A stretch of DNA of 64,000 bases from Dehalococcoidia bacterium (GTDB taxonomy: Bacteria; Chloroflexota; Dehalococcoidia; Plut-88900), in the NCBI GenBank assembly GCA_965207225.1, contig CBDBLV010000004.1:672001-736000 (forward strand), given 5' to 3'. The position numbers were made by a program, and so were the translations under genes. Every line of letters starts with the position of its first letter. The first letter of the stretch is position 1. Below the pieces are notes generated by a model. That model made no database searches. It was not told where the DNA came from and worked only from the letters and a program-made list of their open reading frames with translations. Below are positions 9,915-64,000 of the stretch, piece after piece.

Positions 9915-9972
9915 TGGTGGGCCTAAATTGACGTTAGGCAGAACCATCTTTGAGCTTTGGATGGGGTTGTGA
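9915..9972 (+). mobile_element. att-like left junction of element A with stored LSR C-terminal tail GGPKLTLGRTIFELWMGL*
   Basis: TGGTGGGCCTA identical to 37009-37019; following arm 16/20 identical to 37020-37039. Confidence 0.8.
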
Positions 9973-10206
9973 CCGCTCGTGAGTGCTATGGATGCGATGC
10001 GTTGAGGAGGGAGGACATCGGTGCACATTGGTTTTTTGGATCACAGGGAAGAGTCTAACCGACTGATTCCGATACTGGGCACGAACTTTGGTCTATGCGA
10101 TGGGGGATCATCGGTCCGACAATCACAAAGCCCAGTTTGGCACTCAGAGACTGAGCATAGGCTTGAAGACAATATTGTTTAGATAAGTGGGAGAGAAGCG
10201 GACGAC

Positions 10207-10668
10207 TCAAGATGAGAGTTCAAATTGATCCCGTCGCCACTGCCACCATGTGAGGAAAGCGGTGACAGCGGCAAACAGGACGCCAGTCGCAATGATCGGG
10301 AGCATAAACATTAGCCAGTTATCGTTGTCTGCTCGAACAACATACCAACCCTGCGAGCGGGCGAGCACAAGCACTACCAAGCCGCCCACCGACCCTAAGA
10401 CACCGAGCCAAAGTCCTAAGATCAGACAACTGCGCACACTCGCTTTGTGAGCCACCAGCCCGGTCAGCCCTCCGGCGAAGATCGTCATCAAAGGAGGAGG
10501 CCCCAAGTACAGCAACGCTGCCAAGATGACATCCCAGATGCTAATGTCAAGATCAATTATCGGCAAGTTTCCTCCTCCTATACATTCGGAGCAGGTGCTT
10601 AATTGGAAACCGTTAGCCCTCTTACGGATCATCCATGTTATCGGAACGGATCGCAAGCCGTAGTACAA
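10207..10668 (-). CDS. Hypothetical membrane protein (start uncertain)
   Basis: Several hydrophobic segments; no recognisable motif. Confidence 0.45.
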   Translation of the reverse strand: MYYGLRSVPITWMIRKRANGFQLSTCSECIGGGNLPIIDLDISIWDVILAALLYLGPPPLMTIFAGGLTGLVAHKASVRSCLILGLWLGVLGSVGGLVVLVLARSQGWYVVRADNDNWLMFMLPIIATGVLFAAVTAFLTWWQWRRDQFELSS

Positions 10669-10804
10669 AGAGTCCTTAGTTCGAGTTGTAACCGCCGACG
10701 GTACTCGAATGGTATGTGGAACCCGCTGGGATAGGCTCCAGGGTCATTCTTTTCAGTCTTGTAGGTGCTGAATCACAGCACCTACAAGCCCCGACAGAAT
10801 GTGA

Positions 10805-10833
10805 TTGACATACATAACCGTATGGGTTATAGT
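10805..10833 (+). promoter_or_regulatory. Sigma70 promoter with operator-like inverted repeat; leaderless TA transcript
   Basis: TTGACA(10805)-17 bp-TATAGT(10828); ATAACC/GGTTAT inverted repeat within; ATG at 10840. Confidence 0.75.
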
Positions 10834-10839
10834 CGTGCA

Positions 10840-11184
10840 ATGTATCCGGTATTCTTCCACCAGCGGCCCAACGGTGCCATTCCCTATGAGGAGTACGTGC
10901 GGAACGTCTATCGGGCGGGGCAAAAGACCGAGGCGGCGAAAATCAGGGCATTCGTTGAACGCCTTGAGCAGGAAGGTTCGCAGCGTCTCGTTGGGAGGCG
11001 ATGGGCAGAAAAGATGAACGACGTATGGCAGCTTCGCGCTGGCCAGCACCGGATATTCTACTTCTGGGACTCAGAGGCCGAGCGGTACGTCATTCTAAAC
11101 GGCTTTCGAAAGAGGTCGCGTCGGACTCCACGCCCAGAGTTGGAGAGAGCAGAGAGTCTACGGGCTGAGTATCTGGGAAGATGA
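10840..11184 (+). CDS. RelE/HigB-like (Gp49-like) toxin
   Basis: 'VWQLRAGQHRIFYF...YVILNGFRKRSRRTP.PELERA'; directly upstream of an HTH gene. Confidence 0.8.
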   Translation: MYPVFFHQRPNGAIPYEEYVRNVYRAGQKTEAAKIRAFVERLEQEGSQRLVGRRWAEKMNDVWQLRAGQHRIFYFWDSEAERYVILNGFRKRSRRTPRPELERAESLRAEYLGR

Positions 11185-11194
11185 GGAGAAGATC

Positions 11195-11608
11195 ATGAGA
11201 CGGCATGAGGTTGAGGATAGCCACGCCGAGTGGCTAGAGGACATTGAGTATCGGCAGGAGTTTGGTTCGGAGACCGCCAAGCTTGAGGTCGCGGCAGCAC
11301 TTGCAGACGCACGGGAGGCCGCCGGGATGACTCAATCGGTGCTGGCGGATCGAGCAAGAGTATCCCAGGCATACATCGCAAAGCTGGAGAGGGGTGACGC
11401 AAATCCCACTATTGGCCATATCGGACGACTGTTGGCCTGCATGGGATTGAAGCCTTCCGTCACCGTCGCTCCCATGGAGCCAGCCGCTTCCTCCGAATCT
11501 GTTGATGCAGGGAGCCAGGGAGACTCCAAGTTTGGGGCAGTCTACTCCGACGACCCCCTAGCTGAAGTCGCCGGTTCTTCCGTCGAGCAACCGTCGCCAG
11601 CGGTGTGA
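11195..11608 (+). CDS. XRE HTH antitoxin
   Basis: 'AREAAGMTQSVLADRARVSQAYIAKLERGDANPT'. Confidence 0.85.
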   Translation: MRRHEVEDSHAEWLEDIEYRQEFGSETAKLEVAAALADAREAAGMTQSVLADRARVSQAYIAKLERGDANPTIGHIGRLLACMGLKPSVTVAPMEPAASSESVDAGSQGDSKFGAVYSDDPLAEVAGSSVEQPSPAV

Positions 11609-11692
11609 AATCCCGACGGGGGATGAGCAAGGGAGACTTGGAGTTGGTGATCCCGAGCCGCCCACCTTTCTGGGTTTGAGGAGAAAAGGACA

Positions 11693-13066
11693 CTGAAGAT
11701 AACAGTAATTGGGCTAGGCCGTGTCGGAACGGTTGTCGCCACAGGGCTGGCGACGGCGGGCCATAACGTGCTGGGCGTAGACATCGACCATGATCGGGTG
11801 ACCACCCTTCGTCAGGGCAGGCCTCCATTCTACGAGCCGGAGCTGGCCGAACGGATAACCTTAGCCTCACGGGACAGCGCACTCCGGTTCCTGCACAGGG
11901 ATGAAGTGAATGAGGGCTTGGGGGAGATCGCCGTCATAACCGTCGGCACTCCTCCAGGGCAGGAATCCGCTCCCGACCTACGGCAGGTCCGGGACGCCAT
12001 GTCCTGGGTCAGGTCCATGAGCCCCCGGGGCTTGGTCATCGTCATGAAAAGCACGGTGCCTCCCAGTACAGGATTGAACCTGGTGAAGGAGGAACTGTTG
12101 GGGACAAGCATCCGCTACGTGTCCAACCCAGAATTCCTCCGGGAGGGCCAGGCAATACATGACTGGGATTCTCCCGACCGCATTGTCATCGGAGTCGCTC
12201 CGAATGACGTACGGTCCACCGAGGTCGTGAGACGGATGCACGCCGGTATCGATCCTCCGTTTCTGGTCACCGATGTCACCAGTGCGGAGATGGTCAAGTA
12301 CGCCAACAATGCCTTCCTGGCCACTCGGATTTCCTTCATCAACGAGATTGCAGCCCTGTGCGACTCGTTCGGAGCCTCCATTGACGCCGTGGCCGAAGGC
12401 TTGGCGATGGATTCTAGGACCGGGAGCAAAATCCACGCCGGGGTAGGCTATGGCGGGTCATGCCTACCAAGGGACGTTCGGGCGTTGGACCTGTTGTCTT
12501 CCACTGGAGGGGTGAAAGCGGAGTTGCTCCGGGCGGTGACCAGCGTGAATGATCAGCAGAGGCTACTGCCTTTTCGTGCCCTGCAGAAGCGGTTCGACGG
12601 TCATATCGCCGGACTTAGGATCGGCGTCTTGGGACTGGCCTTCAAACCGGGCACCGAAGATGTCCGGGATGCGCCAGCACTGGAACTGATACGGTCCCTC
12701 GTCGCCGAGGACGCATCGGTAACAGTCTTTGACCCCCACGCCGGTGGACCTGCCAAAGGGCAACTTCCGCCCTCAGCGCGGCTGGTTGATGGGGCGGAGG
12801 AAGCCGCAGATGGTACACAAGCGCTGTGCCTGGTTACCGAGTGGGAGGAAATCGTGGAGGCTGATTGGCAGGCTGTGGCTCGTGGAATGGTTCCACCGCG
12901 TTTTATCTTCGACGGAAGGAACGTCCTAGACCCCCGCCAGATGCGCAGTCTGGGGTTTGAGTACGCAGGAGTGGGGAGAAACGGCGTCAGCACGGGGGAT
13001 CTCGCCGTTGGCACTGGCCAGTCCAAGAGCGACGGCGCAGGCGTCGGAGGCCAGGATGACTGCTGA
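11693..13066 (+). CDS. ugd: UDP-glucose/GDP-mannose dehydrogenase family (probable CTG start)
   Basis: Rossmann 'KITVIGLGRVG' upstream of the track start; motifs KSTVP, NPEFLREG, GYGGSCLPRD, GLAFKPG, DGRN. Confidence 0.9.
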   Translation: MKITVIGLGRVGTVVATGLATAGHNVLGVDIDHDRVTTLRQGRPPFYEPELAERITLASRDSALRFLHRDEVNEGLGEIAVITVGTPPGQESAPDLRQVRDAMSWVRSMSPRGLVIVMKSTVPPSTGLNLVKEELLGTSIRYVSNPEFLREGQAIHDWDSPDRIVIGVAPNDVRSTEVVRRMHAGIDPPFLVTDVTSAEMVKYANNAFLATRISFINEIAALCDSFGASIDAVAEGLAMDSRTGSKIHAGVGYGGSCLPRDVRALDLLSSTGGVKAELLRAVTSVNDQQRLLPFRALQKRFDGHIAGLRIGVLGLAFKPGTEDVRDAPALELIRSLVAEDASVTVFDPHAGGPAKGQLPPSARLVDGAEEAADGTQALCLVTEWEEIVEADWQAVARGMVPPRFIFDGRNVLDPRQMRSLGFEYAGVGRNGVSTGDLAVGTGQSKSDGAGVGGQDDC

Positions 13067-13997
13067 AGGGCGCGTCCTAATCACCGGTGTGGCCGGATTC
13101 GGCGGCTCCCGCCTGGCCGGAGCCTTACTGGAGCTCGGCTACAGTGTGACCGGCCTGGACATTGTGGCCCCTGGGCACGCTGACCTACTGCGTCGAGAGC
13201 TGTCCAATCCAAGGTTTCACTATCTCTGGAAGGGTATCCAGGACATCCAGGCTAAGGACATCGAGGGCCATTCGGTGGTGGTGCACCTTGCGGCCCAGCC
13301 GGACGCCCCACTCGCTTTCGAGTCGCCCCGGTACACGGTCATTCAGAACATCGAGGGCACTGTCGCCCTGCTGGAAGCGGTGCGGCAGGCAGACTGCGTA
13401 TCGAAGCTGATGTTTGCGGGGTCCGGCAACGAGATAGGGCGAGCCTTGTACCTGCCAATCGACGAAGACCATCCGTTGACTCCTCACAATCCATACGGGT
13501 TCTCGAAGGCAGCGGCCGAGATGGCATTGGGGGCATGGCGCCTCGCCTATGAAATCCCGTCAATGGTCATGGGCACAGGCGTCGTGATCGGCCCCAACAT
13601 GCGCAGAGAGGTATTCGTATTCAAGTGGCTGTGGACCGCGCTGCATGGCAAGCCCATAGTGGTCGAGGGCGGTAAGCAGACTCGCGATGTGGCATTCATC
13701 GATGACGTAGTTAGGGCTTGGACACTCGCAATTCAGGCTCCCGTTGAAGAGGTCGTGGGGCAGAAGTTCCTCGTAGGCTCTGGTCAGGAACACTCTATCG
13801 ACGACCTCGCAAGATTCTGCCGGGATAGCGCAGGGAATGACGTCCCAATCGAGTACGTGGGTTACCGTCCTGGAGAAGAAGGACACAGAGAGGCGTTCAG
13901 CGTGGAGAAGGCCCAGAGGGTGCTAGGCTACACTCCCCAGGTCTCACCCAGAGAAGCTATCGGACTAACCGCCGAGTGGGTGCGAACGCTGCTCTAG
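13056..13997 (+). CDS. NAD-dependent epimerase/dehydratase (extended SDR)
   Basis: 'VLITGVAGFGG', 'VVHLAA', YGFSK (YxxxK), 'QTRD'. Confidence 0.9.
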   Translation: MTAEGRVLITGVAGFGGSRLAGALLELGYSVTGLDIVAPGHADLLRRELSNPRFHYLWKGIQDIQAKDIEGHSVVVHLAAQPDAPLAFESPRYTVIQNIEGTVALLEAVRQADCVSKLMFAGSGNEIGRALYLPIDEDHPLTPHNPYGFSKAAAEMALGAWRLAYEIPSMVMGTGVVIGPNMRREVFVFKWLWTALHGKPIVVEGGKQTRDVAFIDDVVRAWTLAIQAPVEEVVGQKFLVGSGQEHSIDDLARFCRDSAGNDVPIEYVGYRPGEEGHREAFSVEKAQRVLGYTPQVSPREAIGLTAEWVRTLL

Positions 13998-14636
13998 CCC
14001 TTTCCAAATGAAGTGGAGTCGTTCCCCGCATCGCCATAGCAGCAGCCCATCCAGATAGTCCGGCCAACCGATCTCGTCTACCGGCAACCTGTAAAGGTGT
14101 GCGACTAGAACTGCCAATATGGCGTCGTGGGTCACGTAGATGTTCAGGCGTCCACAAGCCTGAAGGTCGGTGGTCGTTAGCCGCAGTAGCAGGTCGATAC
14201 CCTCAGCAGTTGGCCTCATGCCGACGGGAGGATTGGCACGGGTGAGTTGGCGCCTCACTATCTCCAATATGCCGATTTCCAGAAAGAGCGCTCCGCTAAC
14301 TTCCGAATCCACGACGAAGGGACCGGGGTCTCCTAGCCGCCAATCTGGGACAATCTCTTCGGGCAACGCACCACCACGCAAGATCGCCTGCGCCGTCGAT
14401 TTACATCTGGGCACGGGGCTGGTGATGACCCTTGTACAGTGCCTTATGTGGGACAGCGCAGCTCCAAGTCTTTCCGCCGAGGCGACTCCATAGGCGGTCA
14501 GGGGCACGTCCACTCCGAATGTCCCTGGAGGAATGTCCTCGCGCTCTGCGTGTCTCAGAACGAGTGCGGCGTCAGCTTCAGCCGGTATGCTCCCAAGCTG
14601 TTCTTTGATCCACGACGCTCCGTCAGTGTCGGTCAT
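13965..14636 (-). CDS. Histidine phosphatase superfamily protein
   Basis: 'LRHAER', 'TSPVPRCKSTA', 'VTHD'. Confidence 0.85.
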   Translation of the reverse strand: MTDTDGASWIKEQLGSIPAEADAALVLRHAEREDIPPGTFGVDVPLTAYGVASAERLGAALSHIRHCTRVITSPVPRCKSTAQAILRGGALPEEIVPDWRLGDPGPFVVDSEVSGALFLEIGILEIVRRQLTRANPPVGMRPTAEGIDLLLRLTTTDLQACGRLNIYVTHDAILAVLVAHLYRLPVDEIGWPDYLDGLLLWRCGERLHFIWKGLEQRSHPLGG

Positions 14637-16324
14637 GACGCTCTGGCGCGGATGATGGAACTTACGGCCACTGTCTCGATCATGTCGAGCAGGTCGAAGC
14701 CCGCCTCACGCAGGATGTTCCTGAACTGCTCCTCCGTGCGTTCAGCCCCTTGCGTCATCACGAGCATGTTCAGGTCCAATAGACCGCCCTCGCCAGTCTC
14801 TTCGCCCAGCACCATCTCGATCACATAGAGCGTGCCGTCTTTTGGCATTGCTTCGCGGGCGCGCTTCAGAATTCGCAGCGCGTTATGGTCGGGCCAGTCG
14901 TGGAGCACCCTCGCCAGAATCACGGCATCCGACGTAACCGGCCATTTCTCAAAGAGATCTCCTCCGACGAATCGGCACCGCTCTGCAAGGTCTGTGGGCG
15001 GTCTGGCGACCCTAACCACCTCCGGCCTGTCCATTACTATTGAACCCAGTCCTGGGCAGGAACGCAGCAACGCGAATGCCAACTCGCCGGTGCCGCCCCC
15101 AGCATCCAGAATGCTGTCGTGGGCACCGAATTCCACCGAGCGGGCAAGGCCCGGGTAGTCGTGTCTTGCGTAGGTCGACATGGCCGAATGGTAGGCTTGT
15201 AGATCGGTGGGCCTGTCCTGAATCCAGTCGAAGAAGTTCTTGCCTTGCATTCTCTCGAAGGCGGACTCTCCGGTCCGAAGTGACCGGGCAACCCCGGACC
15301 AAGCTTCGTAAGATTCTTTGCCCCAGTGTCGAGACGCATCCGCAAGTGAGAAGGGGTGACTTCGCACGAGGAGCGCCCCGCGCTCGGTTGGATGGTAGAT
15401 GCCCTCCGCATCCCTCAGCACGAGTCCCAACTCTGTGAGCGCCCTCATCAATCTAACCCCAACCGACGTGTGCAACTGGGCCTTTCGCTCAATCTGTTCC
15501 GCCGATGCGGGCAGGGACTCGAACACGCCCAGTTCCACCGCAGCATGAATCGTCTGGGTCCGCCAGAGACCGACCATATCGCCTGACAGCCCTTCAAGAT
15601 GTGATTGCGATGGCCTCCTGAGCTCCAGTACAAGCAGGCCCGACTCGTTGATTACCGACAGGGAGCCGTCGAAACCCTCCACGCGGGCCTGCCCGTTGTA
15701 GAACGGCTCCACGCTCTTGAAACGCTCTCTGTACAAGGGCTTCCCCATCATGTCCACATGGTGCCAGCCTTCTGAGTCCCGGGCGCGCGCGTACCGCTTG
15801 TGGAACACGTCCAGGTCTTGGAACCATTGACCATGGAGTGGAACGCCAGAGGCGTCTATGTGGGTGTGTCTACCGTCCTCACGTTGAACAACCGCGTAGC
15901 CGTCCTTGAAGTCTCCGGCGTACCGGTAGCGTTCCCCGTATGCAACTGAGCCATCGCCTGTAATGTGGAGGTAGTCACCGCCAACCAACCGGACGGCGCA
16001 TCTGTCCTCCTGGAAGTTGCCGCACCAGGTGTAGCGCTTCTCGTACAAGGGATTCCCTTCCGGGAGGATATGGACCCAACCATCCTCCGAATGGACCGCT
16101 GCCCGGCCCTCGTAGAATCCAAAGGTTCTGACATAGCGCGGTTCGTAGGCTGCCAGCCCGTCGGGGGTGATGTGGTACGCGCCTGAGCCGTCAAGAACGG
16201 GAGCCAATCCTGGTTCATGGAACTTCAGCACCTCGCGGAATCTCGACGAATAGGCCGACCCTCCCCGATAGACGTGATGGGATGCGTCTTCGGATATCCC
16301 GAAACTGCGCCAGCGATCTTTCAT
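14633..16324 (-). CDS. WG-repeat / O-methyltransferase fusion
   Basis: N-terminal repeats 'F.EG.A.V....G..HI...G'; C-terminal wHTH plus 'LDAGGGTG','GDLF','RVLHDWPD'. Confidence 0.85.
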   Translation of the reverse strand: MKDRWRSFGISEDASHHVYRGGSAYSSRFREVLKFHEPGLAPVLDGSGAYHITPDGLAAYEPRYVRTFGFYEGRAAVHSEDGWVHILPEGNPLYEKRYTWCGNFQEDRCAVRLVGGDYLHITGDGSVAYGERYRYAGDFKDGYAVVQREDGRHTHIDASGVPLHGQWFQDLDVFHKRYARARDSEGWHHVDMMGKPLYRERFKSVEPFYNGQARVEGFDGSLSVINESGLLVLELRRPSQSHLEGLSGDMVGLWRTQTIHAAVELGVFESLPASAEQIERKAQLHTSVGVRLMRALTELGLVLRDAEGIYHPTERGALLVRSHPFSLADASRHWGKESYEAWSGVARSLRTGESAFERMQGKNFFDWIQDRPTDLQAYHSAMSTYARHDYPGLARSVEFGAHDSILDAGGGTGELAFALLRSCPGLGSIVMDRPEVVRVARPPTDLAERCRFVGGDLFEKWPVTSDAVILARVLHDWPDHNALRILKRAREAMPKDGTLYVIEMVLGEETGEGGLLDLNMLVMTQGAERTEEQFRNILREAGFDLLDMIETVAVSSIIRARAS

Positions 16325-17400
16325 GACTCAGCCGGCCGTCGCATGTTGCACCCCTGGCACAGCGCGTTCCGCATGTAGTTGACTTCAAGGTTTCTGTACG
16401 CCGCACTCTCCCAGATGTCGTACAGGCTCGTGTCGTTTACGTTGCCGAAGTAGCCGAGCGTCCGGCGCAGCACGTCCGGGGCGCAGCAGGGATTGAATCG
16501 GCCATCGGAGGCAACCCACGCCTCCTGTCCGAGAAACGGGCATTCACCATCTGGGGTGATGTCGCCCTCGCCGTTCTTGTCCAGCCTGAAGATATTCTCC
16601 AACAGCACACGGTCGCCGTTCGGCAGCCTGTGACGCTCAGCAACCTCGTAGGCCGAATCCACAACGGCGTTCCAATGGGCGATGGCGTCTTGGCTTCTAC
16701 GCATCGACTGGAAGCGCATCTGCTTGAAGTGGACCCAAAGATGATGACCCTTCACCCTGTCCACACCAAGATCAGCAGCCAGCTTCACTATGCCGGGCAG
16801 CTCTGAGACGTTGATTTCCATGAATGTCAGCTGGAACGTCACGCGGCAGTGATTGCCGCCTCGTGCTGCGTGGGCGTCCCTGACCCCAATGAACGTACGA
16901 ACGTTTTCCACAACGGTCTCCCAGTTCGATCCCAGCATGACGTTCTCGTGCGTCGCTTTCGTTGCGCCGTTCCACGACACCTTCATGTCGGACGTGACGG
17001 GTACGATCCGCTCGGCCCACGCTCTAGCTCCGCGCTTGGGAAAGGTGCCGTTCGTCGTCAGGTTGAGCTTGACTCCGTACTCCGCGCAGAGATCCAGGAT
17101 CTCGTCGAAGTGCCGGTACAGCAGCGGTTCGCCCATGGTGGAGGGTATGATTTCGCGCAGCCCCGTGCCCCTGGACTCCTCCATCACCCTGCGGATCAGA
17201 TCGAAGTCCATTCGACGCTTGGGGCGTCCTGCCTCCCGTCTGTCGGTCTGAGTCGTGCTGTAGGGGGAATGGTCCTCGCACATGATGCAGTGGAGGTTGC
17301 AGTCGTCGGGATTAGTGTCGAAGGTGATCCGCCAGGGACCGGACCGATCCTGTGCAGTCCCGGCAAAACTTGCGTTCTTTTCGACGGTGGCTTCAGTCAT
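16321..17400 (-). CDS. Radical SAM protein with SPASM/twitch-like C-terminus
   Basis: CNLHCIMC, 'GEPLL', C-terminal 'CPF..DGRFNPCC..GNV..CQGC'. Confidence 0.92.
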   Translation of the reverse strand: MTEATVEKNASFAGTAQDRSGPWRITFDTNPDDCNLHCIMCEDHSPYSTTQTDRREAGRPKRRMDFDLIRRVMEESRGTGLREIIPSTMGEPLLYRHFDEILDLCAEYGVKLNLTTNGTFPKRGARAWAERIVPVTSDMKVSWNGATKATHENVMLGSNWETVVENVRTFIGVRDAHAARGGNHCRVTFQLTFMEINVSELPGIVKLAADLGVDRVKGHHLWVHFKQMRFQSMRRSQDAIAHWNAVVDSAYEVAERHRLPNGDRVLLENIFRLDKNGEGDITPDGECPFLGQEAWVASDGRFNPCCAPDVLRRTLGYFGNVNDTSLYDIWESAAYRNLEVNYMRNALCQGCNMRRPAES

Positions 17401-17404
17401 TGTC

Positions 17405-18706: not shown

Positions 18707-18731
18707 CGAAACACCCTACCTTTGCCGACAT

Positions 18732-19238: not shown

Positions 19239-19241
19239 CGC

Positions 19242-19478
19242 CTATCCTCCATGAATGGCGTCCCACGTTCTTCTGATCTCCTCGGCATATCTGGCATATG
19301 CCCTCATGATGTTCCTGAAGTTACCAGGGGGAGGAGTGTCCATGCAGGCACCCCCGTTGAGCTCTATGCGGCACACATCTTCGTTGCCGACCCAGACGTG
19401 GGGCGGCTCAAAGCTGTTCTCCCTAGTGTTGACGACGAAGCGGAACTGGCCTTCTATCGCCACAGTTGGCATGGGCAA
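19242..19478 (-). CDS. DUF4160-like small putative toxin
   Basis: 'MPTVAIEGQFRFVVNTRE..EPPHVWV...I...WDAIHG'. Confidence 0.75.
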   Translation of the reverse strand: MPMPTVAIEGQFRFVVNTRENSFEPPHVWVGNEDVCRIELNGGACMDTPPPGNFRNIMRAYARYAEEIRRTWDAIHGG

Positions 19479-53784: not shown

Positions 53785-53805
53785 TGAGAAAAGGAAGCGA
53801 ACGAA

Positions 53806-56100: not shown

Positions 56101-56115
56101 GGAGGAGTAACAGAA

Positions 56116-58647
56116 ATGAAACAGAACCCGATACGCAAACTATTTGGAAGCGACGACAAGACCCCGGCGCTGCTTGCGGTGACGCCGCCGAGGACGGGCG
56201 AGCGGACGTTGCTGGGCGTGGAGAACCTCCTCCAGTCCATCGCGGTGCCTGAGCCCTTCTCCCTGGAGCTTGCCGGGGACATGGACGGCGTGACGCTGAT
56301 GGCCCGGTGCATCGACGACCGGGTGGTACGCGGCCAGATCTCCGCCCACTACCCCCAGGCCAGGATAGAGAAGGTGGACCCAAACAACGATCCCTTGCGC
56401 CTGGGAGACGGCGAGCAGGCGTGGTCGATGACGCTCAGGGCCGACGGCCCCGAGTATGTCCCCCTGCGCACCTTCCGCGACGACGACCTCCTCGACCCCG
56501 GCTCCGACCCCCTCATCGCCCTCATGGGCGCTCTGTCGTCCCTCTACGAGGGGGAGCGGATTGTGGCTCAACTCAAGCTGAACTCCCTCGGTCCCGACTG
56601 GTCGCAGCACCATCTGGAAAAGGCCCACAAACGGCCCGGCCAGGAGCAGCGGGAGCCCTCCTACACCTACCAGACCAAGCCCCTCCAGATGGACGGGGTG
56701 ACCATGGCCGTGCTCGGCGTCGGCGCTCTCGCCGCCCTCCAGGGCTACCTGTGGGTGCAGGACGGGGAGACGTGGAAAGCCGTGCTGCTGGGCATGGGCG
56801 TTGCCCTGGGCCTTACCGCTGGCGGCTGGGCATGGCACCGCTTCAAGAAAGCCCGCAATCGGGTCGATGACCCGTTGCTCATCAGGGAGAAGGTCTCCCG
56901 CATCGCCTTCGACGCAGAGATACAGGTGACGGCGATCATGCCGGACGACACGGGGCGCGAGCGGGCCGAGGAGCTCCTCAGAAGGGTTGCCGCCGCCTAC
57001 CGGCACTTCGACAACCCGGCAGGGGCGAGGTTCAAGGTGAGCAAGGTAAGGCCCGTCGCTCCCGCCCCGGAGAACCTGCATCCCACAGGCCCCGGCCTGT
57101 TCGGCAGGCGCAGCGTCCTGGGGGTGCGGGAGGCCGCCTGCCTCTGGCACCCGCCGGGAGCGGGGAACGAGACGCCGTTGGTGGAGCGGTCCGGCGCACG
57201 GGCGCTCAGCCCGTCGGCGAAGGGAGTCAGGGGCGGCGCGCTGGTGGGCGACACCACGGCGGGTACCAAGAGGGAGATCAGATTCCCCGACGACCTGCTG
57301 CGCCGTCACCACCTCTACGTGGCCCGCACCCGCATGGGCAAGTCCACGCTGATGCACCACGTGGTCGTTCACAAGATGCGGGAGAAGGCGGCGGGCAGGG
57401 ACGAAGACGCCATCGTCGTCATAGACCCCCACACCGACCTGGTGGCGGGCATCCTCGAACACGTCCCGGAGGAGATAGCCGACAGGGTGAGGCTGATAGA
57501 CCTGTCGGACGCGAGCCGTTCCCCCGGCGTCAATCTGCTGGACACCCGCATATTCGCAGACCGGGACCGCACCGCCGACTCGGTGGTGCGGGTGGCCAAG
57601 GGCCTCTGGGACCAGTGGGGGCCGAGGATGCAATCGATCCTGGAACAGACCGTCAAGACGCTGCACGAGGCCAACGAGCAGATGGAGGCCGAGCAGCAGT
57701 ACACCATCCTCGACGGCCTGAAGCTGCTCTCGGACGATGAGTTCGCCAAGCAGGTGCGCAAGAGGGTCTCCGACCCCTACCTGCTGGAGTGGTGGGCCAG
57801 GGACTTCGGCAAGTGGGGCCGCCAGTACAAGGCGGAGGCCCTGGCCCCCGTCCAGACCCGTCTCTCCTACTACGCATCGTCCAAGCGGGCCAGGGCCATC
57901 CTGGGACAGCGCCGCTCCACCATCGACCTGAGAAGGACCATCCACGACGGCGGCGTGCTGCTGGTCTCCACCTCCCAGGGGGTCGTGGGCAGGGACGTGG
58001 CCGCCCTGGTGGGCGCGTCGCTCCTGAACCTGGTGGACGCCGTGATACGGGAGCAGGGAAGTCTATCTCTCAGGGAACGTCGCGGCGCGCTGGTCGTCGT
58101 GGACGAGATGCAGTCCATGCCCGGCGTGGACTACGAGTCGATGCTCAGCGAGCTTGGGAAGTTCGGGGCGTCCTTCATCCTCGCCACCCAGAGCCTGGCA
58201 AAGCTGGACGACCTCTCCCGCACCATGCGGGACACCATCCTCGCCAACGTGGGGTGCCTCGCCGTCTTCCAGGTGGCCGGCTCAGACGCCAGGACCCTGG
58301 TGTGGGAGCTTGGCAAGGACCGGGTGTCCGAGGACGACATCGTGTCCCTGCCCGTGCACCACTGCTACGTCCGCGCCACCGTGGGCACCGAGCGGATGCC
58401 CGCCTTCTCGATGGAGGTCAGGAAGCCTGAGGAAGGAGACCCATCGGTCGCCGACCGCATACGTGCAGCTACGCAAGGCTACACCGTCTCGGCCCGCCAG
58501 GGAGACTACGCCGACGCCGAGGGCCACGGGAAGGTGGACGAATTTCACAAAGGCGTCGAGGCATTGGAGCAGGCCGAACGGGAGGAGAACGACGAGCAGG
58601 CGACCGAGAACCACACCGACGAAGAGGACGAGGAGGTCGGAGAATGA
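56116..58647 (+). CDS. virD4: VirD4/TraD-like coupling protein
   Basis: ARTRMGKS, VIDPH, VVDEMQ, 'ATQSLAKL','ILANVG'. Confidence 0.85.
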   Translation: MKQNPIRKLFGSDDKTPALLAVTPPRTGERTLLGVENLLQSIAVPEPFSLELAGDMDGVTLMARCIDDRVVRGQISAHYPQARIEKVDPNNDPLRLGDGEQAWSMTLRADGPEYVPLRTFRDDDLLDPGSDPLIALMGALSSLYEGERIVAQLKLNSLGPDWSQHHLEKAHKRPGQEQREPSYTYQTKPLQMDGVTMAVLGVGALAALQGYLWVQDGETWKAVLLGMGVALGLTAGGWAWHRFKKARNRVDDPLLIREKVSRIAFDAEIQVTAIMPDDTGRERAEELLRRVAAAYRHFDNPAGARFKVSKVRPVAPAPENLHPTGPGLFGRRSVLGVREAACLWHPPGAGNETPLVERSGARALSPSAKGVRGGALVGDTTAGTKREIRFPDDLLRRHHLYVARTRMGKSTLMHHVVVHKMREKAAGRDEDAIVVIDPHTDLVAGILEHVPEEIADRVRLIDLSDASRSPGVNLLDTRIFADRDRTADSVVRVAKGLWDQWGPRMQSILEQTVKTLHEANEQMEAEQQYTILDGLKLLSDDEFAKQVRKRVSDPYLLEWWARDFGKWGRQYKAEALAPVQTRLSYYASSKRARAILGQRRSTIDLRRTIHDGGVLLVSTSQGVVGRDVAALVGASLLNLVDAVIREQGSLSLRERRGALVVVDEMQSMPGVDYESMLSELGKFGASFILATQSLAKLDDLSRTMRDTILANVGCLAVFQVAGSDARTLVWELGKDRVSEDDIVSLPVHHCYVRATVGTERMPAFSMEVRKPEEGDPSVADRIRAATQGYTVSARQGDYADAEGHGKVDEFHKGVEALEQAEREENDEQATENHTDEEDEEVGE

Positions 58648-60305
58648 GACCCGCGGGACTGGAAGCCCACCTCCTCCGCACCCTGGCCGACATGCCCTAC
58701 CTCAATCGCCGGGAGATGGTCCCGGTCACGGGCCGGTCCAAGGGCGCGGTCCACGAGGCCGTGGAGAGACTTCAGGCAGACGGCCTCTGCGGCTCCGTGC
58801 TCCACGCCGTCGATCCCTTTCCACCCTCCCGCAGGTTCCACCTCACCGGGGCGGGGCTGCGCATGCTTGCAGATGAGGACGGGATGTCGCTTGACGACCT
58901 GGTGCGTACCCACCCCGTCTCCGCCGAGTGGCGGCGAAGCCTGATGGAGCGCATGGACGCCCTGGATTCCATCTACCGCGTCGCATCTCTCGCTTCCGAC
59001 GTTGCCTACCCCCTGCGCTTCCGCTGGTACCGCTCATCCAAGCTGGACGCGGGTATAGAACTTCCCGACGGCAGGACCGTCGGAATCGTCAGGCAGGGAC
59101 TCACCGCCGACCGCTCGGTCTTCGCCCAGCGCCTCTGGCGACTGAAGGACGAACCCATGCCCGGAGTCGTCCTCGTCCTCACGATGGACGCCGTCCGTCT
59201 CAGGCACGCCCGCAGGATGCTCTCGACGACCGGCGTACCGGCGTTGCTCGCCATCGAAGGCGAGGCGGTCCTGGCCGGAGCCGACGACCACATCTGGACC
59301 CCGGCCCAGGTCCACGCAGCCGTGGGCCTGCGCTATTCGTTGGACAGGACCGACCCCGGCGGCGCGTTTCCGGGGGAGCCGCAGCCCGGACTGGCGTCGG
59401 TCCCCGCAGACCTGCCCGTCATGGGAACGGTAGCCGACATGGCCGACCACATGCTGCCCGTGACGCTCAGACCCGCCGAGAAGCGCGCCCTCGACCTGGT
59501 ATTCGACTGGCCCTGGATCGCCCTGGGGGACCTCGCCGGTCTGTTGGAAGTATCGCCCCAGCGGGCTTCCCAGCTGGTCAATCCCTTGGAGGGCTTCAGC
59601 CTCGTCGTCAGGCCCCGCGAAGCGGAGGGACGGCTGGCCCTCACCGACCGGGGACTGGCCCTCCTCGCCCGCAGGGACAGGACATCGGTGGCGGCGGCGA
59701 GGAGGAGATTGAGCGTCGCCCCGGAGGACGCCAAAGGGCCTTTCGAGTGGCGCAACCTCACCGGCAGCAGGAGCCGCCAGCTTCTCAGGAACATCGAGCA
59801 CACCGAGGCCGTCCACGTCTTTCTGTCCGCGCTTGCGGCCCAGGCCCGGCACCTGGGCTGGGAGATAGCGCAGCTCGACCCGCCCAGGAGGGCGTCCCGC
59901 CACTTCCGCCACGACGAACGGTTGCGCGCCGTCTACCCCGACGCCTTCGGCGTCCTGCGCAGGGCCGAAGAGACGTGGGCCTTCTTCCTGGAGTGGGAGC
60001 GAAGGGCCGTTCGGCCCTCGACGATGGCGACGCGGCTCGCGCCCTATCTGCGCTACTACTCGTCCCAAAGGCCCATGGACGACCACGGGGCCAGACCCGC
60101 CGTTCTCATCGTCTTCGACGACGACATCGCCGCCACCCACTTCCTGCGCGTGGCGAGGGAGCGGATGCAGGCCAGCCGGGTCAGGGTCCCCCTGTGGGTC
60201 TCCCACAAAGAAGCCATCGACGCCCTGGGGCCGCTGGGACGCGCCTGGCGCACCCCGGACACCGCATGGGAGCCGCCCCAGTCCCTGCCGACGGAAGTGC
60301 AATAG
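58644..60305 (+). CDS. Replication-relaxation (Replic_Relax/MOBC-like) protein
   Basis: wHTH segments, 'YPDAFGVL...FFLEWER'; coupled to virD4. Confidence 0.75.
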   Translation: MRPAGLEAHLLRTLADMPYLNRREMVPVTGRSKGAVHEAVERLQADGLCGSVLHAVDPFPPSRRFHLTGAGLRMLADEDGMSLDDLVRTHPVSAEWRRSLMERMDALDSIYRVASLASDVAYPLRFRWYRSSKLDAGIELPDGRTVGIVRQGLTADRSVFAQRLWRLKDEPMPGVVLVLTMDAVRLRHARRMLSTTGVPALLAIEGEAVLAGADDHIWTPAQVHAAVGLRYSLDRTDPGGAFPGEPQPGLASVPADLPVMGTVADMADHMLPVTLRPAEKRALDLVFDWPWIALGDLAGLLEVSPQRASQLVNPLEGFSLVVRPREAEGRLALTDRGLALLARRDRTSVAAARRRLSVAPEDAKGPFEWRNLTGSRSRQLLRNIEHTEAVHVFLSALAAQARHLGWEIAQLDPPRRASRHFRHDERLRAVYPDAFGVLRRAEETWAFFLEWERRAVRPSTMATRLAPYLRYYSSQRPMDDHGARPAVLIVFDDDIAATHFLRVARERMQASRVRVPLWVSHKEAIDALGPLGRAWRTPDTAWEPPQSLPTEVQ

Positions 60306-60627
60306 ACGACGCAGGGAGCGGCGCGAAAACTCCCGCTCAATACCCGATAGGAGATGGAAAGCCGATGCGTTCACCGGATAACGATATAGCAAGAGGCCCC
60401 CGGAGGAGCGGAGGACGGAGCGCCGTCCGGCTCGACGCGGCGGCTCTGGGAGACGGCTCACTTCGGTGATCACCTCCCGGAACCGGCCCGCCGGGGTCGA
60501 TACAGACAGACCCGGTCCCATGTCGAAGTCGGCGCGTGGGGAGCGACCGCCCTCCGGTCGCATCCGCCGCCGGATGCACATGGCCTTGGGAACAACAACC
60601 CAAAGCTTTACGACATGGAGGATAGAC

Positions 60628-60918
60628 ATGACCAACATCGATCACATCGACGGATGGAGCGAGATGGAGCCCCTTCAGGGCGCCGACATGCCCGAGGACT
60701 TCCCCCAGCGGCTCGTGCGCCTCAAGGAGGCCAGCGGCCTCTCCTGGCGCGGCCTGTGCAGGGTCACCGGCATCGACTACAAGCTGCTGCGAAGGTGGCT
60801 CAAGGGCTGGGCGCCCAGCGGAGGCTCCATGCTCACCCTGGTCATCTTCGCCAACCGCATCGGATGCCTTCCGATCCTCCTGGGGGAGGAGCTACGGATG
60901 ACCCACTTCAGGAGCTAG
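60628..60918 (+). CDS. XRE HTH regulator
   Basis: 'RLKEASGLSWRGLCRVTGIDYKLLRRWLKG..P'; GGAGG RBS. Confidence 0.8.
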   Translation: MTNIDHIDGWSEMEPLQGADMPEDFPQRLVRLKEASGLSWRGLCRVTGIDYKLLRRWLKGWAPSGGSMLTLVIFANRIGCLPILLGEELRMTHFRS

Positions 60919-61084
60919 CCGGCACCCCCCGCCGGCGCCCTAACCGGCGCATCGGCGGCGCGGCGGGGTAGGACACCACAACGCCGCCGGGCGCTCGCAC
61001 CCATCCGTCCGTGCCCGGCGGCCACCCAATACACCTGTAACGAGAGGCCAGCGGCCCAACGAACCGCCGCTGAGATTAGGCAAC

Positions 61085-61303
61085 ATGAAAGACACCAATA
61101 GAGAAGATACGAGGAACCGGCAAAAGAAGAGGCTGGGGAGGGATGCTCCCGAGTCATCCTCCGACAGGCCGATGGAGTCCTATACTCCTCAGCAGCGAAG
61201 GACGATACGCAAGGGGCTGCGCATCCTGGCCAAGGTCGCCGTCCGCGCCCACATGCGCAGGAACGCGGCTCACTCAGAGGATGACGGCGAGGGCAGGCGG
61301 TGA
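61085..61303 (+). CDS. Small conserved ICE protein (candidate directionality factor)
   Basis: Paralog of 22196-22435; upstream of LSR. Confidence 0.7.
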   Translation: MKDTNREDTRNRQKKRLGRDAPESSSDRPMESYTPQQRRTIRKGLRILAKVAVRAHMRRNAAHSEDDGEGRR

Positions 61304-61364
61304 ACGTCCCGCCCAACCTTGTCCCCGGCAGACTCGTTGGAGATGGCCGCGTGAAGCTAGCATC

Positions 61365-61393
61365 TTGGCATAGCACGAAAGCCGTGCTATTAT
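61365..61393 (+). promoter_or_regulatory. higBA promoter/operator; leaderless transcript
   Basis: TTGGCA-17 bp-TATTAT; perfect inverted repeat ATAGCACG/CGTGCTAT; ATG at 61400. Confidence 0.75.
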
Positions 61394-61399
61394 GTACTT

Positions 61400-61693
61400 A
61401 TGATTGTCTCATTCAGAGACGGCGGTACAGAGGACATCTTCAACGGGCAATCCACTCAAGCGGCCCTGCGGGCATGTCCCATGCCGATATGGGGAGTGGC
61501 TCATCGAAAGCTTGACCAGATCGATTCCGCCTCCGTTCTGGGAGACCTCAGAATACCTCCCGGCAACCGCCTGGAACGGCTGGCCGGAGATCGAAGCGGG
61601 CAACACGGTATTCGCGTCAACGACAGGTATCGAATCTGCTTCACGTGGACACCTGCCGGACCCGCCGACGTCGAAATCACCGACTATCACTGA
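61400..61693 (+). CDS. higB: HigB toxin
   Basis: 'MIVSFRD','DLRIPPGNRLE.L.GDR.GQH.IRVND.YRICF.W','DVEITDYH'. Confidence 0.95.
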   Translation: MIVSFRDGGTEDIFNGQSTQAALRACPMPIWGVAHRKLDQIDSASVLGDLRIPPGNRLERLAGDRSGQHGIRVNDRYRICFTWTPAGPADVEITDYH

Positions 61694-61701
61694 AGAGGAG
61701 A

Positions 61702-62067
61702 ATGAGCATGGTACGCATTCCCACCGATCGAGAGCCTACGCATCCGGGCGAGATGCTTCTGACGGAGTTCCTGCTGCCCCTCGGAATGACTCAGCGCGAC
61801 CTGTCCAATGCCATTCACGTGCCCTATCAGAGGGTCAACGAAGTCGTCCGAGGGAAGCGGGGGGTCACGCCAAGCACCGCCCTGAGGCTCTCTAGGTTCT
61901 TCGGCACTTCGCCCGGCTTTTGGATGAACCTGCAACTCCGTTGGGACCTCTACCACGCCGAGCGTTCCGAGGCTGAACAGATCGAGGGCATCCTTCCGCG
62001 TGAAATGGTCAGCGCGCTTGGGGAAGACACGGGTTCGATGACGACGATGCCGGGTGTTGCAGGCTAG
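61702..62067 (+). CDS. higA: HigA antitoxin
   Basis: 'PTHPGEML..EFL.PLG','TALRLSRFFGTSPGFWMNLQ..WDL'. Confidence 0.95.
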   Translation: MSMVRIPTDREPTHPGEMLLTEFLLPLGMTQRDLSNAIHVPYQRVNEVVRGKRGVTPSTALRLSRFFGTSPGFWMNLQLRWDLYHAERSEAEQIEGILPREMVSALGEDTGSMTTMPGVAG

Positions 62068-62111
62068 TAGTGGCCCACGGGAACGACAGGAAACAGGAGG
62101 AGGACTCACAG

Positions 62112-64000
62112 ATGAACAATAGAAGCGACTACACCCCCGTGGCCCTCTACGCCAGGGTCTCCAGCGACAGACAGGACGTGGACCTGTCCGTGGCCGCACA
62201 GTTGCGGGCGCTCAGGGAATACGCCCAGAAGAACGACTACGTGGTCGTCCGCGAGTACGTGGACGAGGCCGAGAGCGGGCGCGTCGCCGACCGCCCGGAG
62301 TTCCGCAAGATGATCGACGAGGTCGCCAAGCCCGAGGCCCCGTTTAGAAAAATCCTTGTGTGGAAATTTAGTAGATTCACCAGAAAGCGCGAGCACGCCG
62401 TCGCCTTCAAGTCCATGCTCAGGCGAAAGGGCGTCCGCGTCGTCTCCATCACCGAGCAGGCCGACGACACCGCCACCGGCAGGCTCCTTGAGGGCATCAT
62501 CGAGTCCGTCGATGAGTTTTACTCGGAAAATCTTGCGGAAGAGGTTCGCCGTGGGATGCGGGAGGCCGCTTCCAGAGGCTTCTGGGTCGCCAGCCGGACG
62601 CCCTACGGCTACAACCGCGTCATGGTGCAGGACGGAGCCAAGAAGCGGCCCACACTGGAGATCGACCCTGACACTGCTCCCGTCGTCAAGCGCATCTTCG
62701 ACATGGCCGAGTCGGCCACCGGGATGACCGAAATCACCCGCACACTCAACGGCGAGGGCATCGCCAGCGCCACCGGCAAGCTCTGGTCCAAGAACGGCGT
62801 CCACTTCATCCTCAGAAACGAGGTCTACACGGGCACGCTGCTCTGGGGCACTACAGGGAAGGTCAAGTCCGACCCCGTACGCATAGAGAAGGCGTTCCCC
62901 GCCGTCGTCTCCAAGGCCCAATTCAACCGCGTCAAGCGGCTCATGCGCTCCCGCGCCCCCAAAAGGAACCACCCCCGCAGGGTGGGAAGCTCCTACCTGC
63001 TCAGCGGGCTGGTCAGGTGCAAGTCCTGCAACAGGGCGCTCTCAGGCCAGGACGCCAAGAGCGGCCAGTTCGCCTACTACGTCTGCCAGTCCATCATGAA
63101 GCGGGGCAAGAACGCTTGCACGACCCCCAGGCTCAACGCACGACGCTTCGAGGAGATGGTGGTGGAGAGGATACGGGAGAACGTCCTCACCGAGTCCAAC
63201 ATCACCGAACTGGTCAAGATAGTGGACGAGGAGATGGATGGGGTCGCCGCCGAGCAGCGGCAGAAGCTGGAGACCATCGAGGCCGAGCTTGATGAGGTCA
63301 AGCGCAAGCTGGGCCGCGTCTGGCACCTGGTGGAGAACACCGACCTCGACATGGCCGACGCCTCGGAACGCATCAGGGAGCACCGGGAGCGTCAACAGCG
63401 CCTTGAGGACTCGGCGGCCGAGGCCAGGACCATCCTCTCCCAGCGCAGGGAGGTGCTGGACGACGTGGAGACCATCGCGGCCTATGCCCAGGACATGAGC
63501 GAGTTCCTGAAGGAGAGCGAACTGACCGAGCGCAGGGCCTTCATCGAGTCTTTCGTCAAGGAGATCGTCGTCATGCCCGACAACGCCCTCCTCCGGTACA
63601 CCATCCCCATGCCTCAGGATGGACCGGTAGGAGGGAGAAACGCCGAGGAGATGGCCCTGAACGGCTCGGTTCTGTCTACCGTCAAAAATGGTGGACTGGA
63701 CTTGACGAAATCAAGAACCGAGGCCGATTCCTTCGTCACGCCGTCGCTGGGCATGGGGACCGTGTACGTCAGGGTCGCCTCGTCTCCGACCACCTCGATA
63801 CTCTCAACGAAGTTGCGGATGAGCGCCTTGCGCTCGGGGATCGTCCCTTCCTTCAGGAACTCCCTGAAGTCCGCCACGTACTCCCGAATCACGTCGGTTG
63901 TGGGCAGTTCCACCCTGCGCTGCTCAAGTCGGGTCTCCGCGTCCTCCCGCGCAGCCTCAAGCTGCTCCTCGCGGTGCCTTAGAGACATGATGCGGGGCGA
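62112..64000 (+). CDS. Large serine recombinase 1 (own sequence ends at att ~63694; no stop codon within window)
   Basis: Absent from ORF track. MNNRSDYTPVALYARVSSDRQD, 'FSRFTR', 'PYGY', Zn ribbon 'CKSC...YYVC...C', coiled coil. Confidence 0.95.
   Translation, partial: MNNRSDYTPVALYARVSSDRQDVDLSVAAQLRALREYAQKNDYVVVREYVDEAESGRVADRPEFRKMIDEVAKPEAPFRKILVWKFSRFTRKREHAVAFKSMLRRKGVRVVSITEQADDTATGRLLEGIIESVDEFYSENLAEEVRRGMREAASRGFWVASRTPYGYNRVMVQDGAKKRPTLEIDPDTAPVVKRIFDMAESATGMTEITRTLNGEGIASATGKLWSKNGVHFILRNEVYTGTLLWGTTGKVKSDPVRIEKAFPAVVSKAQFNRVKRLMRSRAPKRNHPRRVGSSYLLSGLVRCKSCNRALSGQDAKSGQFAYYVCQSIMKRGKNACTTPRLNARRFEEMVVERIRENVLTESNITELVKIVDEEMDGVAAEQRQKLETIEAELDEVKRKLGRVWHLVENTDLDMADASERIREHRERQQRLEDSAAEARTILSQRREVLDDVETIAAYAQDMSEFLKESELTERRAFIESFVKEIVVMPDNALLRYTIPMPQDGPVGGRNAEEMALNGSVLSTVKNGGLDLTKSRTEADSFVTPSLGMGTVYVRVASSPTTSILSTKLRMSALRSGIVPSFRNSLKSATYSRITSVVGSSTLRCSSRVSASSRAASSCSSRCLRDMMRG
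63614..64000 (-). CDS. C-terminus of large serine recombinase 2 (element D, continues beyond window)
   Basis: 'EFLKEGTIPERKALIRNFVESIEV...LTYTVPMP.DG' matches LSR1 'EFLKESELTERRAFIESFVKEIVV...RYTIPMPQDG'. Confidence 0.85.
   Translation of the reverse strand, partial: SPRIMSLRHREEQLEAAREDAETRLEQRRVELPTTDVIREYVADFREFLKEGTIPERKALIRNFVESIEVVGDEATLTYTVPMPSDGVTKESASVLDFVKSSPPFLTVDRTEPFRAISSAFLPPTGPS
63667..63719. mobile_element. attR of element C, overlapping both LSR coding ends
   Basis: Left arm is the exact reverse complement of 37020-37040; right arm 63699-63718 is a 19/20 reverse complement of 36989-37008; core TGGTGG. Confidence 0.92.

Follow-up and report, generated by a model that had tools for sequence, protein, structure and literature searches.

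Large serine recombinase elements joined end to end in a Dehalococcoidia genome: a probable accretion array with relatives at tRNA gene ends

How several mobile elements come to lie end to end at a single chromosomal locus, and what kind of site joins them, is the question raised by a 64,000-nt stretch of DNA from a Dehalococcoidia bacterium (GCA_965207225.1, contig CBDBLV010000004.1, positions 672,001-736,000), hereafter called the window. A first-pass annotation of this DNA had described at least five related elements stacked at junctions at 9915, 35157, 37009 and 63689, with two repeated arm types sharing one attachment (att) architecture and with a link to a serine recombinase. Our analysis bears this description out. 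The four positions are the first bases of core hexamers, and five elements, named A, E, B, C and D from left to right, are joined at one site architecture, with A and C lying on the plus strand and E, B and D on the minus strand as had been proposed, and the integrase is a large serine recombinase (LSR). We read the window, with a probability of roughly 0.75, as a site-specific accretion array of five integrative LSR elements, in which C appears intact and the others are more or less decayed (Table 1).

Two short motifs mark the junctions. Arm 1 (TTGACGNTAGNCAGAACC) has exact matches at 9928 (+), 37022 (+) and 63668 (-), and when up to three mismatches are allowed it has four matches against 0.34 expected, with at least four found in none of 100 shuffled sequences. 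Exact copies of arm 2 (GACTTGANNAAATCAAGAAC) occur at 35137 (-), 36989 (-) and 63699 (+), three matches against 0.03 expected (at least three in 0/100 shuffles). The repeated arms are real and not a product of chance. The fourth arm 1 match, at 63702 (+) with three mismatches, is actually a copy of arm 2, and the two motifs are therefore related. The core hexamer TGGTGG starts at 9915, 37009 and 63689, and TGGTAG at 35157; TGGTGG, the core that recurs at the junctions, is the reverse complement of the CCACCA end of tRNAs. Read on the plus strand, all four sites fall into one register composed of an outer block, GTCAA or ATCAA, 7 nt, a central dinucleotide, 7 nt, TTGAC and a second outer block, and the dinucleotide is GG at 9919-9920, 37013-37014 and 63693-63694 and AG at 35161-35162.

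Serine integrases act on short quasi-palindromic sites with a non-palindromic centre, typically quasi-palindromes of about 40-50 bp with a non-palindromic central dinucleotide in the case of LSR att sites. The sites at 36989-37040 and 63667-63718 have this form: they are 52 nt long each, mutually 85% complementary, and carry GG 7 nt from either inner arm block. Adjacent elements are separated by sites at 35137-35162, 36989-37039 and 63668-63719, which is the arrangement of an accretion array. At 9915 the GC content falls from about 0.70 to about 0.57, and the DNA to the left, which has no arm, is read as the native chromosomal flank.

Both arms are also coding sequences. The LSR of C has Pfam matches to PF00239 (118 bits, residues 24-170 of the open reading frame (ORF) starting at 62070), PF07508 (74 bits) and PF13408 (45.5 bits), matches SPbeta SprA/YokA (residues 55-399) and the catalytic domain of the TP901-1 integrase in the PDB, and ends in conserved codons (...NGSVLSTVKNGG) that are the arm 1 copy at 63668 (-). 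The minus-strand ORF covering 63614 to 64000 encodes the C-terminal part of another LSR, which is convergent with the first and belongs to D, and its last conserved codons (...SVLDFVKSSPP) are the arm 2 copy at 63699 (+). This second LSR is complete in a related locus, L001, which is 94.5% identical to window positions 52113-64000; there it has 548 aa and is 56% identical to the C LSR over 499 aa, and both LSRs contain the motif YARVSSDRQ, in keeping with an N-terminal resolvase domain that has its nucleophilic serine. Judged by their sequence, arm 1 and arm 2 are homologous coding ends, and half-sites, of two LSR lineages, referred to here as type 1 and type 2. The idea that arm 1 is an attP half and arm 2 a chromosomal attB half was dropped, arm 2 (+) being the coding end of the second LSR.

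The four arms outside LSR genes, here called P' arms, each encode a peptide of 16-17 residues followed by a stop codon: GGPKLTLGRTIFELWMGL from 9916 and GGPILTVDRTVFELRLGSL from 37010 on the plus strand, and PDLTKSRTFTLTLVLDL (arm at 36989) and PDLIKSRTFRLSFKLEV (arm at 35137) on the minus strand. Relatives in which such an arm follows the LSR gene have proteins completed by a similar tail (the LSRs of L040, L064, L076 and L018 and proteins P0004, P0077 and P0097), which places attP within the LSR gene itself, at its 3' end. Its P arm corresponds to the last conserved LSR codons, and the P' arm, found at the other end of the integrated element, encodes the tail. As for the integrated state, the C LSR frame (62070-63998) passes through the junction into the antisense of the D LSR for at least 100 codons, the type-1 LSR frame of L001 (9959-11821) reads on for 79 codons into the antisense of its partner LSR, and the antisense of the C LSR adds a tail of 24 residues to the D LSR.

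A search with the C LSR returned 425 related loci, of which the best 80, all from Dehalococcoidia or Chloroflexota assemblies, were analysed by calling tRNA genes with ARAGORN and classifying the partner of the LSR 3' end. The partner is an intact tRNA gene on the opposite strand, with its CCA end overlapping the core, in 26 of the 80 loci, a convergent second LSR in 25 (20 with arm-2 sequences and five with other arms), a P' arm with a conserved tail in three and something else in 21; the LSR end was not aligned in four and met a contig end in one. The tRNA partners belong to nine anticodon classes (Ile-gat, 5; Ala-tgc, 5; Lys, 4; Val-cac, 3; Val-gac, 3; Val-tac, 2; Ala-ggc, 2; Glu, 1; Met, 1). 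Given these 26 loci, the canonical target is a tRNA gene, entered at its 3' CCACCA end and left intact after integration. The earlier remark that neither ssrA nor a tRNA is visible is correct for the window itself, but the relatives make a tRNA gene outside it the most likely anchor of the array; a tmRNA was called neither in the window nor in any of the 80 loci. Where tRNA genes in these loci are unoccupied, their downstream flanks are mutually unrelated, and most of the target specificity must therefore lie in the tRNA half.

The first-pass annotation had suggested comparing synteny across related genomes, and at the right-hand junction of C the outcome is positive: two loci (L002 and L038) align to the window only up to 63694, exactly at the core, and continue with tRNA-Val. 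One genome has C-like elements at both tRNA-Val(cac) and tRNA-Val(gac); their LSRs are 93% and 92% identical to that of C, their secretion genes have 79-84% DNA identity, and their homology to the window ends at 63694, the centre. In locus L051, arm 2 (-), the core and a P' arm are followed by a 4.8-kb element with an LSR and then by tRNA-Lys, and the junction (L051 6738-6790) is of the same type as the hybrid site at the left end of C. These breakpoints suggest integration. An inverted upstream copy of the own P arm was also sought in each locus, which yielded only the window sites and one weak match with four mismatches in C at 52499, because P and P' are often too different.

The gene polarity of the two types offers an account of how the array was built. 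In type 1 (A and C) the LSR gene lies left of the centre and reads toward GG, and in type 2 (D, B and probably E) it lies right of the centre and reads toward CC, which is the same centre on the other strand. Because the centre is non-palindromic, each type should enter a given tRNA site in one orientation only; type 1 would settle with its LSR adjoining the tRNA and type 2 with its LSR at the far end, and the two types would stack tail to tail with convergent LSR genes. A minus-strand tRNA right of the array demands type 1 on the plus strand and type 2 on the minus strand, exactly the pattern seen, and L051 offers a complete and independent case. We consider it rather probable that the anchoring tRNA lies to the right of the window. 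A would have come first, entering a tRNA site whose downstream flank is the DNA left of 9915, and E, B, C and D would each have entered later at a junction still bearing the tRNA half-site, each internal junction then combining the tRNA-side arm of the older element with the far arm of the newer one. The newest element would lie nearest the tRNA and the older members would have decayed, and the gradient of decay fits that order, with A and E truncated, B nearly gone, C intact and D apparently intact. We give even odds to the arrival order A, E, B, C, D. A deletion associated with an IS21-family element would have removed the LSR ends of A and E, and one ending at the crossover point would have cut B to 1.85 kb. 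C would retain everything needed to excise, conjugate and reintegrate, D would be mobilizable and could travel with C, and there may be activity at the present day.

Several observations weigh against this account. Neither the arm on the left of the 9915 site nor that on the right of the 35157 site matches an arm family, no tRNA or tmRNA was called in the window, and no Rfam family reached its gathering score there. Canonical LSRs such as phiC31 and Bxb1 are not known to act on attP paired with attL or attR, and the re-use of hybrid sites would thus need relaxed rules. A search for relatives of the type-2 LSR gave 4225 proteins at E<=1e-50, of which the closest 120 (81-99% identical) were sorted by their tail with a pattern match. 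The tail is the antisense of a type-1 LSR end in 60 of them (and in one more by eye), T-loop-like in 19, of the FEMWLG-type P' form in 16, of the KSRTF type in two and of other kinds in 20, and the motif is lacking in three. Tail-to-tail pairing is thus the commonest state of type-2 enzymes, far above what chance neighbours would give, and T-loop-like arms that are not tRNAs, and that this account does not explain, occur in these 19 tails and in loci L024 and L016. Across 17 convergent pairs the identities of the two partners (LSR1 and LSR2) co-diverge, with a Mantel r of 0.82 that none of 2000 permutations reached, host kinship being uncontrolled, and only about 3.1-3.4 kb with both LSR genes aligns between several of the paired loci. 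Co-inheritance of the pair explains this co-divergence no less well than a series of independent arrivals would.

The alternative that survives best, a possible but less probable one, is that the 3' end of a type-2 LSR together with the inverted P' arm is the preferred target of type 1, and that C inserted into an intact type-2 site between B and D instead of beside a tRNA, in which case the array could grow without one. When C is removed in silico, arm 2 (-) faces arm 2 (+) in the correct register and the D LSR receives a natural tail, but such a tail is common to every arm 2 (-) copy and is no proof of a once-intact site. The pairing counts agree with this alternative, both for the 20 of 80 type-1 LSR ends that face an arm-2 LSR end and for the type-2 LSRs with an antisense type-1 tail, as do the co-divergence of the pairs and the fact that most arm-2 copies begin with TGGTGGGCCGG, which resembles the acceptor ends of tRNA-Lys and tRNA-Ile. 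However, the type-1 element of L051 has arm 2 (-) on one side and a genuine tRNA-Lys on the other, arm 2 (+) being absent, LSRs 92-93% identical to that of C use tRNA-Val directly, and the T-arm-like hairpin of the window arm 2 is missing from most other copies. Arm 2 had also been considered as a mimic of the tRNA T-arm (a 5-7-5 hairpin), which was rejected: the stem pairs 4/5 in the window copy and is not kept in the commonest copies of relatives.

A more doubtful proposal goes further, namely that the convergent LSR genes form a functional docking module in which the gene end of each lineage is the preferred landing site of the other, so that the array would extend itself with alternating orientation and without a tRNA. 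Each insertion would then swap the last 16-17 LSR residues of the neighbour (in the case of C, for an extension of at least 100 residues), and this swap of tails could switch or record the integrated state. If true alongside tRNA targeting, it would imply serine-recombinase rules unlike those of phiC31 or Bxb1.

It is unlikely, in our judgement, that the convergent LSR pair is one co-inherited module of two recombinases resembling CcrA/CcrB or DsiA/DsiB, in which C and D would form a composite and the site between them would be internal. The Mantel correlation between LSR1 and LSR2 and the loci that align only over the stretch bearing both genes would be accounted for in this way. C, however, is bounded by 21-bp inverted ends of its own, tRNA genes occupied by a C-like element alone are known from relatives, and one swap of partners is seen, L004 and L030 having LSR2 proteins that are 93% identical and LSR1 proteins that are 69% identical; furthermore, host kinship was uncontrolled, and the LSR genes may simply be the most conserved part of variable elements.

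The integron-like hotspot with two specificity classes favoured by the first-pass annotation is very improbable. Two arm families do alternate along the array, and the serial capture of units at one locus is a feature shared with integrons, but both families have the same core, centre and spacing and both are homologous LSR coding ends, belonging to 56%-identical lineages on opposite sides of the site rather than to distinct att specificities. In contrast to integron cassettes, the units measure 2-27 kb, are self-mobile or decayed and carry their own recombinase and transfer genes, with no promoterless small cassettes; no IntI or other tyrosine-recombinase family was detected on the 49 window ORFs scanned by Pfam, and no search for attC was made. 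Finally, the view that the arms are mere conserved coding ends of recombinase genes or pseudogenes, or inverted repeats of a DDE transposon, without att function can practically be dismissed, since two of six arm copies do lie inside LSR genes but those at 9928, 35137, 36989 and 37022 are found at homology breakpoints, with the nearest LSR gene 1.8-27 kb away, the same position abuts a tRNA 3' end in the 26 relatives, and the sole transposase in the window, that of the IS21-family element, has different ends of its own.

Tandem accretion at an RNA gene has precedents, among them the ssrA islands of Dehalococcoides with their serine integrase. Among other composite islands, staphylococcal cassette chromosome (SCC) elements such as SCCmec carry the LSRs CcrA and CcrB, which are co-directional and act jointly in one element, target rlmH and have no conjugation genes. 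The accretion array is like SCC in its use of LSRs, in 3'-end integration that spares a conserved gene and in composite tandem islands with short repeats, and unlike it in that the convergent LSRs belong to separate elements and C has conjugation genes.

In the D. mccartyi ssrA islands (McMurdie et al. 2011, PMC3146451), a tRNA-like RNA gene is targeted at its 3' end and is faced by the gene of DsiB, a serine integrase of about 540 residues, at the island edge, the repeat primer starts with TGGTGG, and several islands lie in tandem, some without integration genes, for which accretion has already been proposed. The array shares with them the bacterial class, a serine recombinase of similar length encoded at the element edge, which in relatives faces an RNA gene targeted at its 3' end, TGGTGG and tandem stacking. 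It differs from these islands in that the targets of its relatives are ordinary tRNA genes of nine anticodon classes, in that C has type IV secretion whereas the ssrA islands are described as only mobilizable, in its two LSR lineages of opposite polarity arranged tail to tail, and in a repeat of 6-9 bp instead of 20 bp. No DsiA-like small serine recombinase was found by Pfam in C, which has one Resolvase-domain protein among its ORFs, and A, E and B have none. Tandems of ICESt1/ICESt3 with a cis-mobilizable element (CIME) in Streptococcus thermophilus, and tandems of integrative mobilizable elements (IMEs), involve tyrosine recombinases and stack in direct orientation, and IMEs with serine recombinases mostly disrupt protein-coding genes (Guedon et al. 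2017, PMC5704250); as here, decayed members keep their att sites, and composite excision and cis-mobilization are possible. The mechanism proposed above would correspond to the accretion of such tyrosine-recombinase elements (PMC5704250) and to the proposal made for ssrA islands (PMC3146451). The tRNA-gene islands of Islander (Hudson et al. 2014, PMC4383910), which rely on tyrosine integrases, also target the tRNA 3' end, restore the gene from the element and form tandem arrays, with the difference that the enzyme here is a serine recombinase; according to this 2014 reference work, a tRNA target was not known for serine integrases.

In the literature searched, from which subscription journals were not covered, no description of tRNA targeting by a serine integrase was found apart from the ssrA work, and no occurrence of the word tRNA is counted for the LSR survey by Durrant et al. 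Compared with this literature, the new aspects are a large serine integrase family that abuts the 3' ends of many tRNA genes, two lineages with opposite gene polarity placed tail to tail, and an attP inside the integrase frame, whereby integration rewrites the C-terminus of the enzyme. The interest of the locus rests less on the array than on this tRNA-targeting LSR family and the convergent LSR pairs. Few genetic tools exist for Dehalococcoidia, and a conjugative element that appears intact, has a simple integrase and aims at a defined tRNA target offers a practical starting point. From the viewpoint of integrase engineering, it would be unusual for enzymes to rely, as these seem to, mainly on a single conserved half-site.

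Table 1 Elements, junction sites and genes of the array (window coordinates)
Feature	Coordinates	Strand	Description
Left junction of A and of the whole array	9915-9972	+	core 9915-9920; arm 1 (+) = P' arm 9928-9945; LSR tail from 9916
Element A	9973-24486 (junction from 9915)	+	remnant of type-1 mobilizable element
A, toxin-antitoxin pair	10765-11608		HigB-like (Gp49)/HTH
A, sugar/glycan genes	11768-18706		UDP-glucose dehydrogenase, epimerase, O-methyltransferase, radical SAM/SPASM, GT4
A, backbone stretches common with C	21513-21907, 22114-22368		79-80% identical
A, relaxase	22622-24535		Replic_Relax; cut at 24487
IS21-family element	24487-27084	-	istA 25377-26957; istB 24586-25380; 53-nt imperfect terminal inverted repeats
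Element E	27085-35162	-	remnant of minus-oriented element; genes on minus strand only
E, CARDB surface protein	27804-30269	-	
E, DUF805 protein		-	
E, PD40 beta-propeller protein	30976-33702	-	
E, Uma2 nuclease		-	
E, right end	35137-35162	-	arm 2 (-) = P' arm 35137-35156; core TGGTAG 35157-35162
Element B	35163-37014	-	decayed right-hand 1.85 kb of type-2 element
B, relaxase pseudogene fragment	35137-35349		residues 55-125, one in-frame stop, 63% identical to L001 relaxase
B, Fpg N-terminal fragment	35316-35576		
B, membrane protein	35607-36611		
B, right end	36989-37014	-	arm 2 (-) 36989-37008; core 37009-37014
Hybrid site, left end of C	36989-37039		arm 2 (-), GG 37013-37014, arm 1 (+)
Element C	37015-63692	+	about 26.7 kb; 21-bp perfect inverted ends (arm 1 (+)/arm 1 (-))
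C, toxin-antitoxin pair	37184-37890		PIN/AF2212-like
C, secreted repeat proteins	38365-39999, 40006-44808		signal peptides; the latter with 5 Calx-beta domains
C, four-HTH regulator	44984-46141		
C, type IV secretion pilins	51454-51735, 53467-53784		T4SS_pilin 49.3 bits (cut-off 26.6)
C, VirB4-like ATPase	53806-56100		P-loop_TraG 48 (cut-off 25.8)
C, coupling protein	56116-58647		TrwB_AAD_bind 25.8 (cut-off 20.5)
C, relaxase	58644-60305		Replic_Relax 25.7 bits, barely above cut-off 25.3
C, HTH protein	61645-62067		
C, type-1 LSR	62112-63695 (ORF from 62070; 62112 = probable start)	+	Resolvase, Recombinase, Zn_ribbon_recom
Hybrid site, right end of C	63668-63719		arm 1 (-) = last codons of C LSR; GG 63693-63694; arm 2 (+) = last codons of D LSR, other strand
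Element D	from 63695, past the window	-	type 2; LSR 3' end 63614-64000

As to the individual elements, C combines an integrase and flanking att sites with a relaxase, a coupling protein, a VirB4-type ATPase and pilins, and, with these type IV secretion genes, is predicted from its sequence to be an integrative conjugative element that is still intact. Its secreted repeat proteins agree with the delivery of surface proteins envisaged by the first-pass annotation, and the toxin-antitoxin modules that it had noted close to where A and C begin on the left are also present. A small basic protein without a Pfam family is common to C (61085-61303, 72 aa, starting MKDTNREDTRNRQ) and A (22196-22435, 79 aa, starting MRDSNREDTRNRQ), lies just upstream of the present or former LSR gene and may serve as a directionality factor or assist the relaxase. 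The counterpart of D in L001 has the 548-aa LSR followed by an HTH-NYN protein, a DUF4238 protein, an HTH_17 protein and a relaxase, with no secretion genes within 10 kb.

Neither a recombinase nor secretion genes were found in A by the Pfam scan of its ORFs. In at least 20 relatives the relaxase of A lies just upstream of a type-1 LSR, and the homology of these loci to the window ends at 24478-24487 and is not resumed to the right of the IS21-family element. A is therefore a type-1 mobilizable element that would have lost its LSR end through an IS21-associated deletion, and the IS21-family element is read as marking the deletion that took the LSR ends of both A and E. The IS21-family element is complete, and its own ends contain repeated TGGCTCAATGTT-like blocks, the left one overlapping the last codons of the A relaxase ORF. 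The tblastx comparison of A with C gave nothing beyond noise when unfiltered, and a score filter was then applied. Part of the A cargo (14030-18708, encoding a His phosphatase, a WG-repeat O-methyltransferase, a radical SAM/SPASM protein and a GT4 glycosyltransferase) has 69% DNA identity to L015 911-5600, so that this cluster travels with the element family. A P' arm was looked for at the start of L044, upstream of a homologue of the A toxin-antitoxin pair, and was not found.

E is probably the far end of a minus-oriented, probably type-2 element whose LSR end went in the same deletion as that of A. Its PD40 gene contains, at 31267-32226 and 32206-33180, six repeat copies at a spacing of 132 nt, the best of them 91-93% identical to the reference copy, and a 300-nt duplication of 98% identity. 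To the right of the 35157 junction lies the interior of a type-2 relaxase gene, with homology ending where the E arm starts. The left edge of B is thus inside that gene, which identifies B as a 1.85-kb remnant produced by a deletion that ended exactly at the crossover point.

Among the 21 loci with other partners, six (L015, L053, L058, L061, L063 and L077) have a third class of P'-like arm, CCTAAGTGTACCGTATTGCGAACTTTTCGGTGGGAGG and variants, after the LSR. This arm is also present in L074 (7535-7590), where it follows arm 2 (-) and forms the left end of a 4-kb element, and in L053 the arm is separated from a tRNA-Met by 5 kb of DNA in which no LSR of this family occurs. Mini-elements of 4-5 kb with an LSR and a few small genes (L051 6760-11584 and L074 7560-11584) may be the minimal mobile unit of the family. 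Another eight of the 21 loci (L006, L011, L012, L016, L018, L022, L024 and L043) form a subclade with an inverted core. Together with L010, their LSRs, with a 3' end near 11584, are 71-78% identical to the C LSR and have the core GGCCCACC instead of GGTGGGCC, which gives them the polarity of type 2. Several of them continue into T-loop-like arms (..GACTCGAACC..) in tRNA register; that these are tRNAs was rejected, as ARAGORN calls none and Rfam gives no match at E<=1 in L024 and L016. Two further loci in this group, L036 and L070, have a displaced tRNA and a tRNA fragment.

Just outside the array, two giant proteins of 1747 and 1253 aa with fn3 and Calx-beta matches are encoded on the minus strand at 730-9731 in DNA of about 70% GC, and look like host surface proteins. 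Their region holds eight copies of a repeat of about 300 nt, mostly 327 nt apart, the best of which are 86-96% identical to the reference copy. A segment of 151 nt at 702-852 is 96.7% identical to L044 20368-20518, which lies elsewhere in the genome that contains L001.

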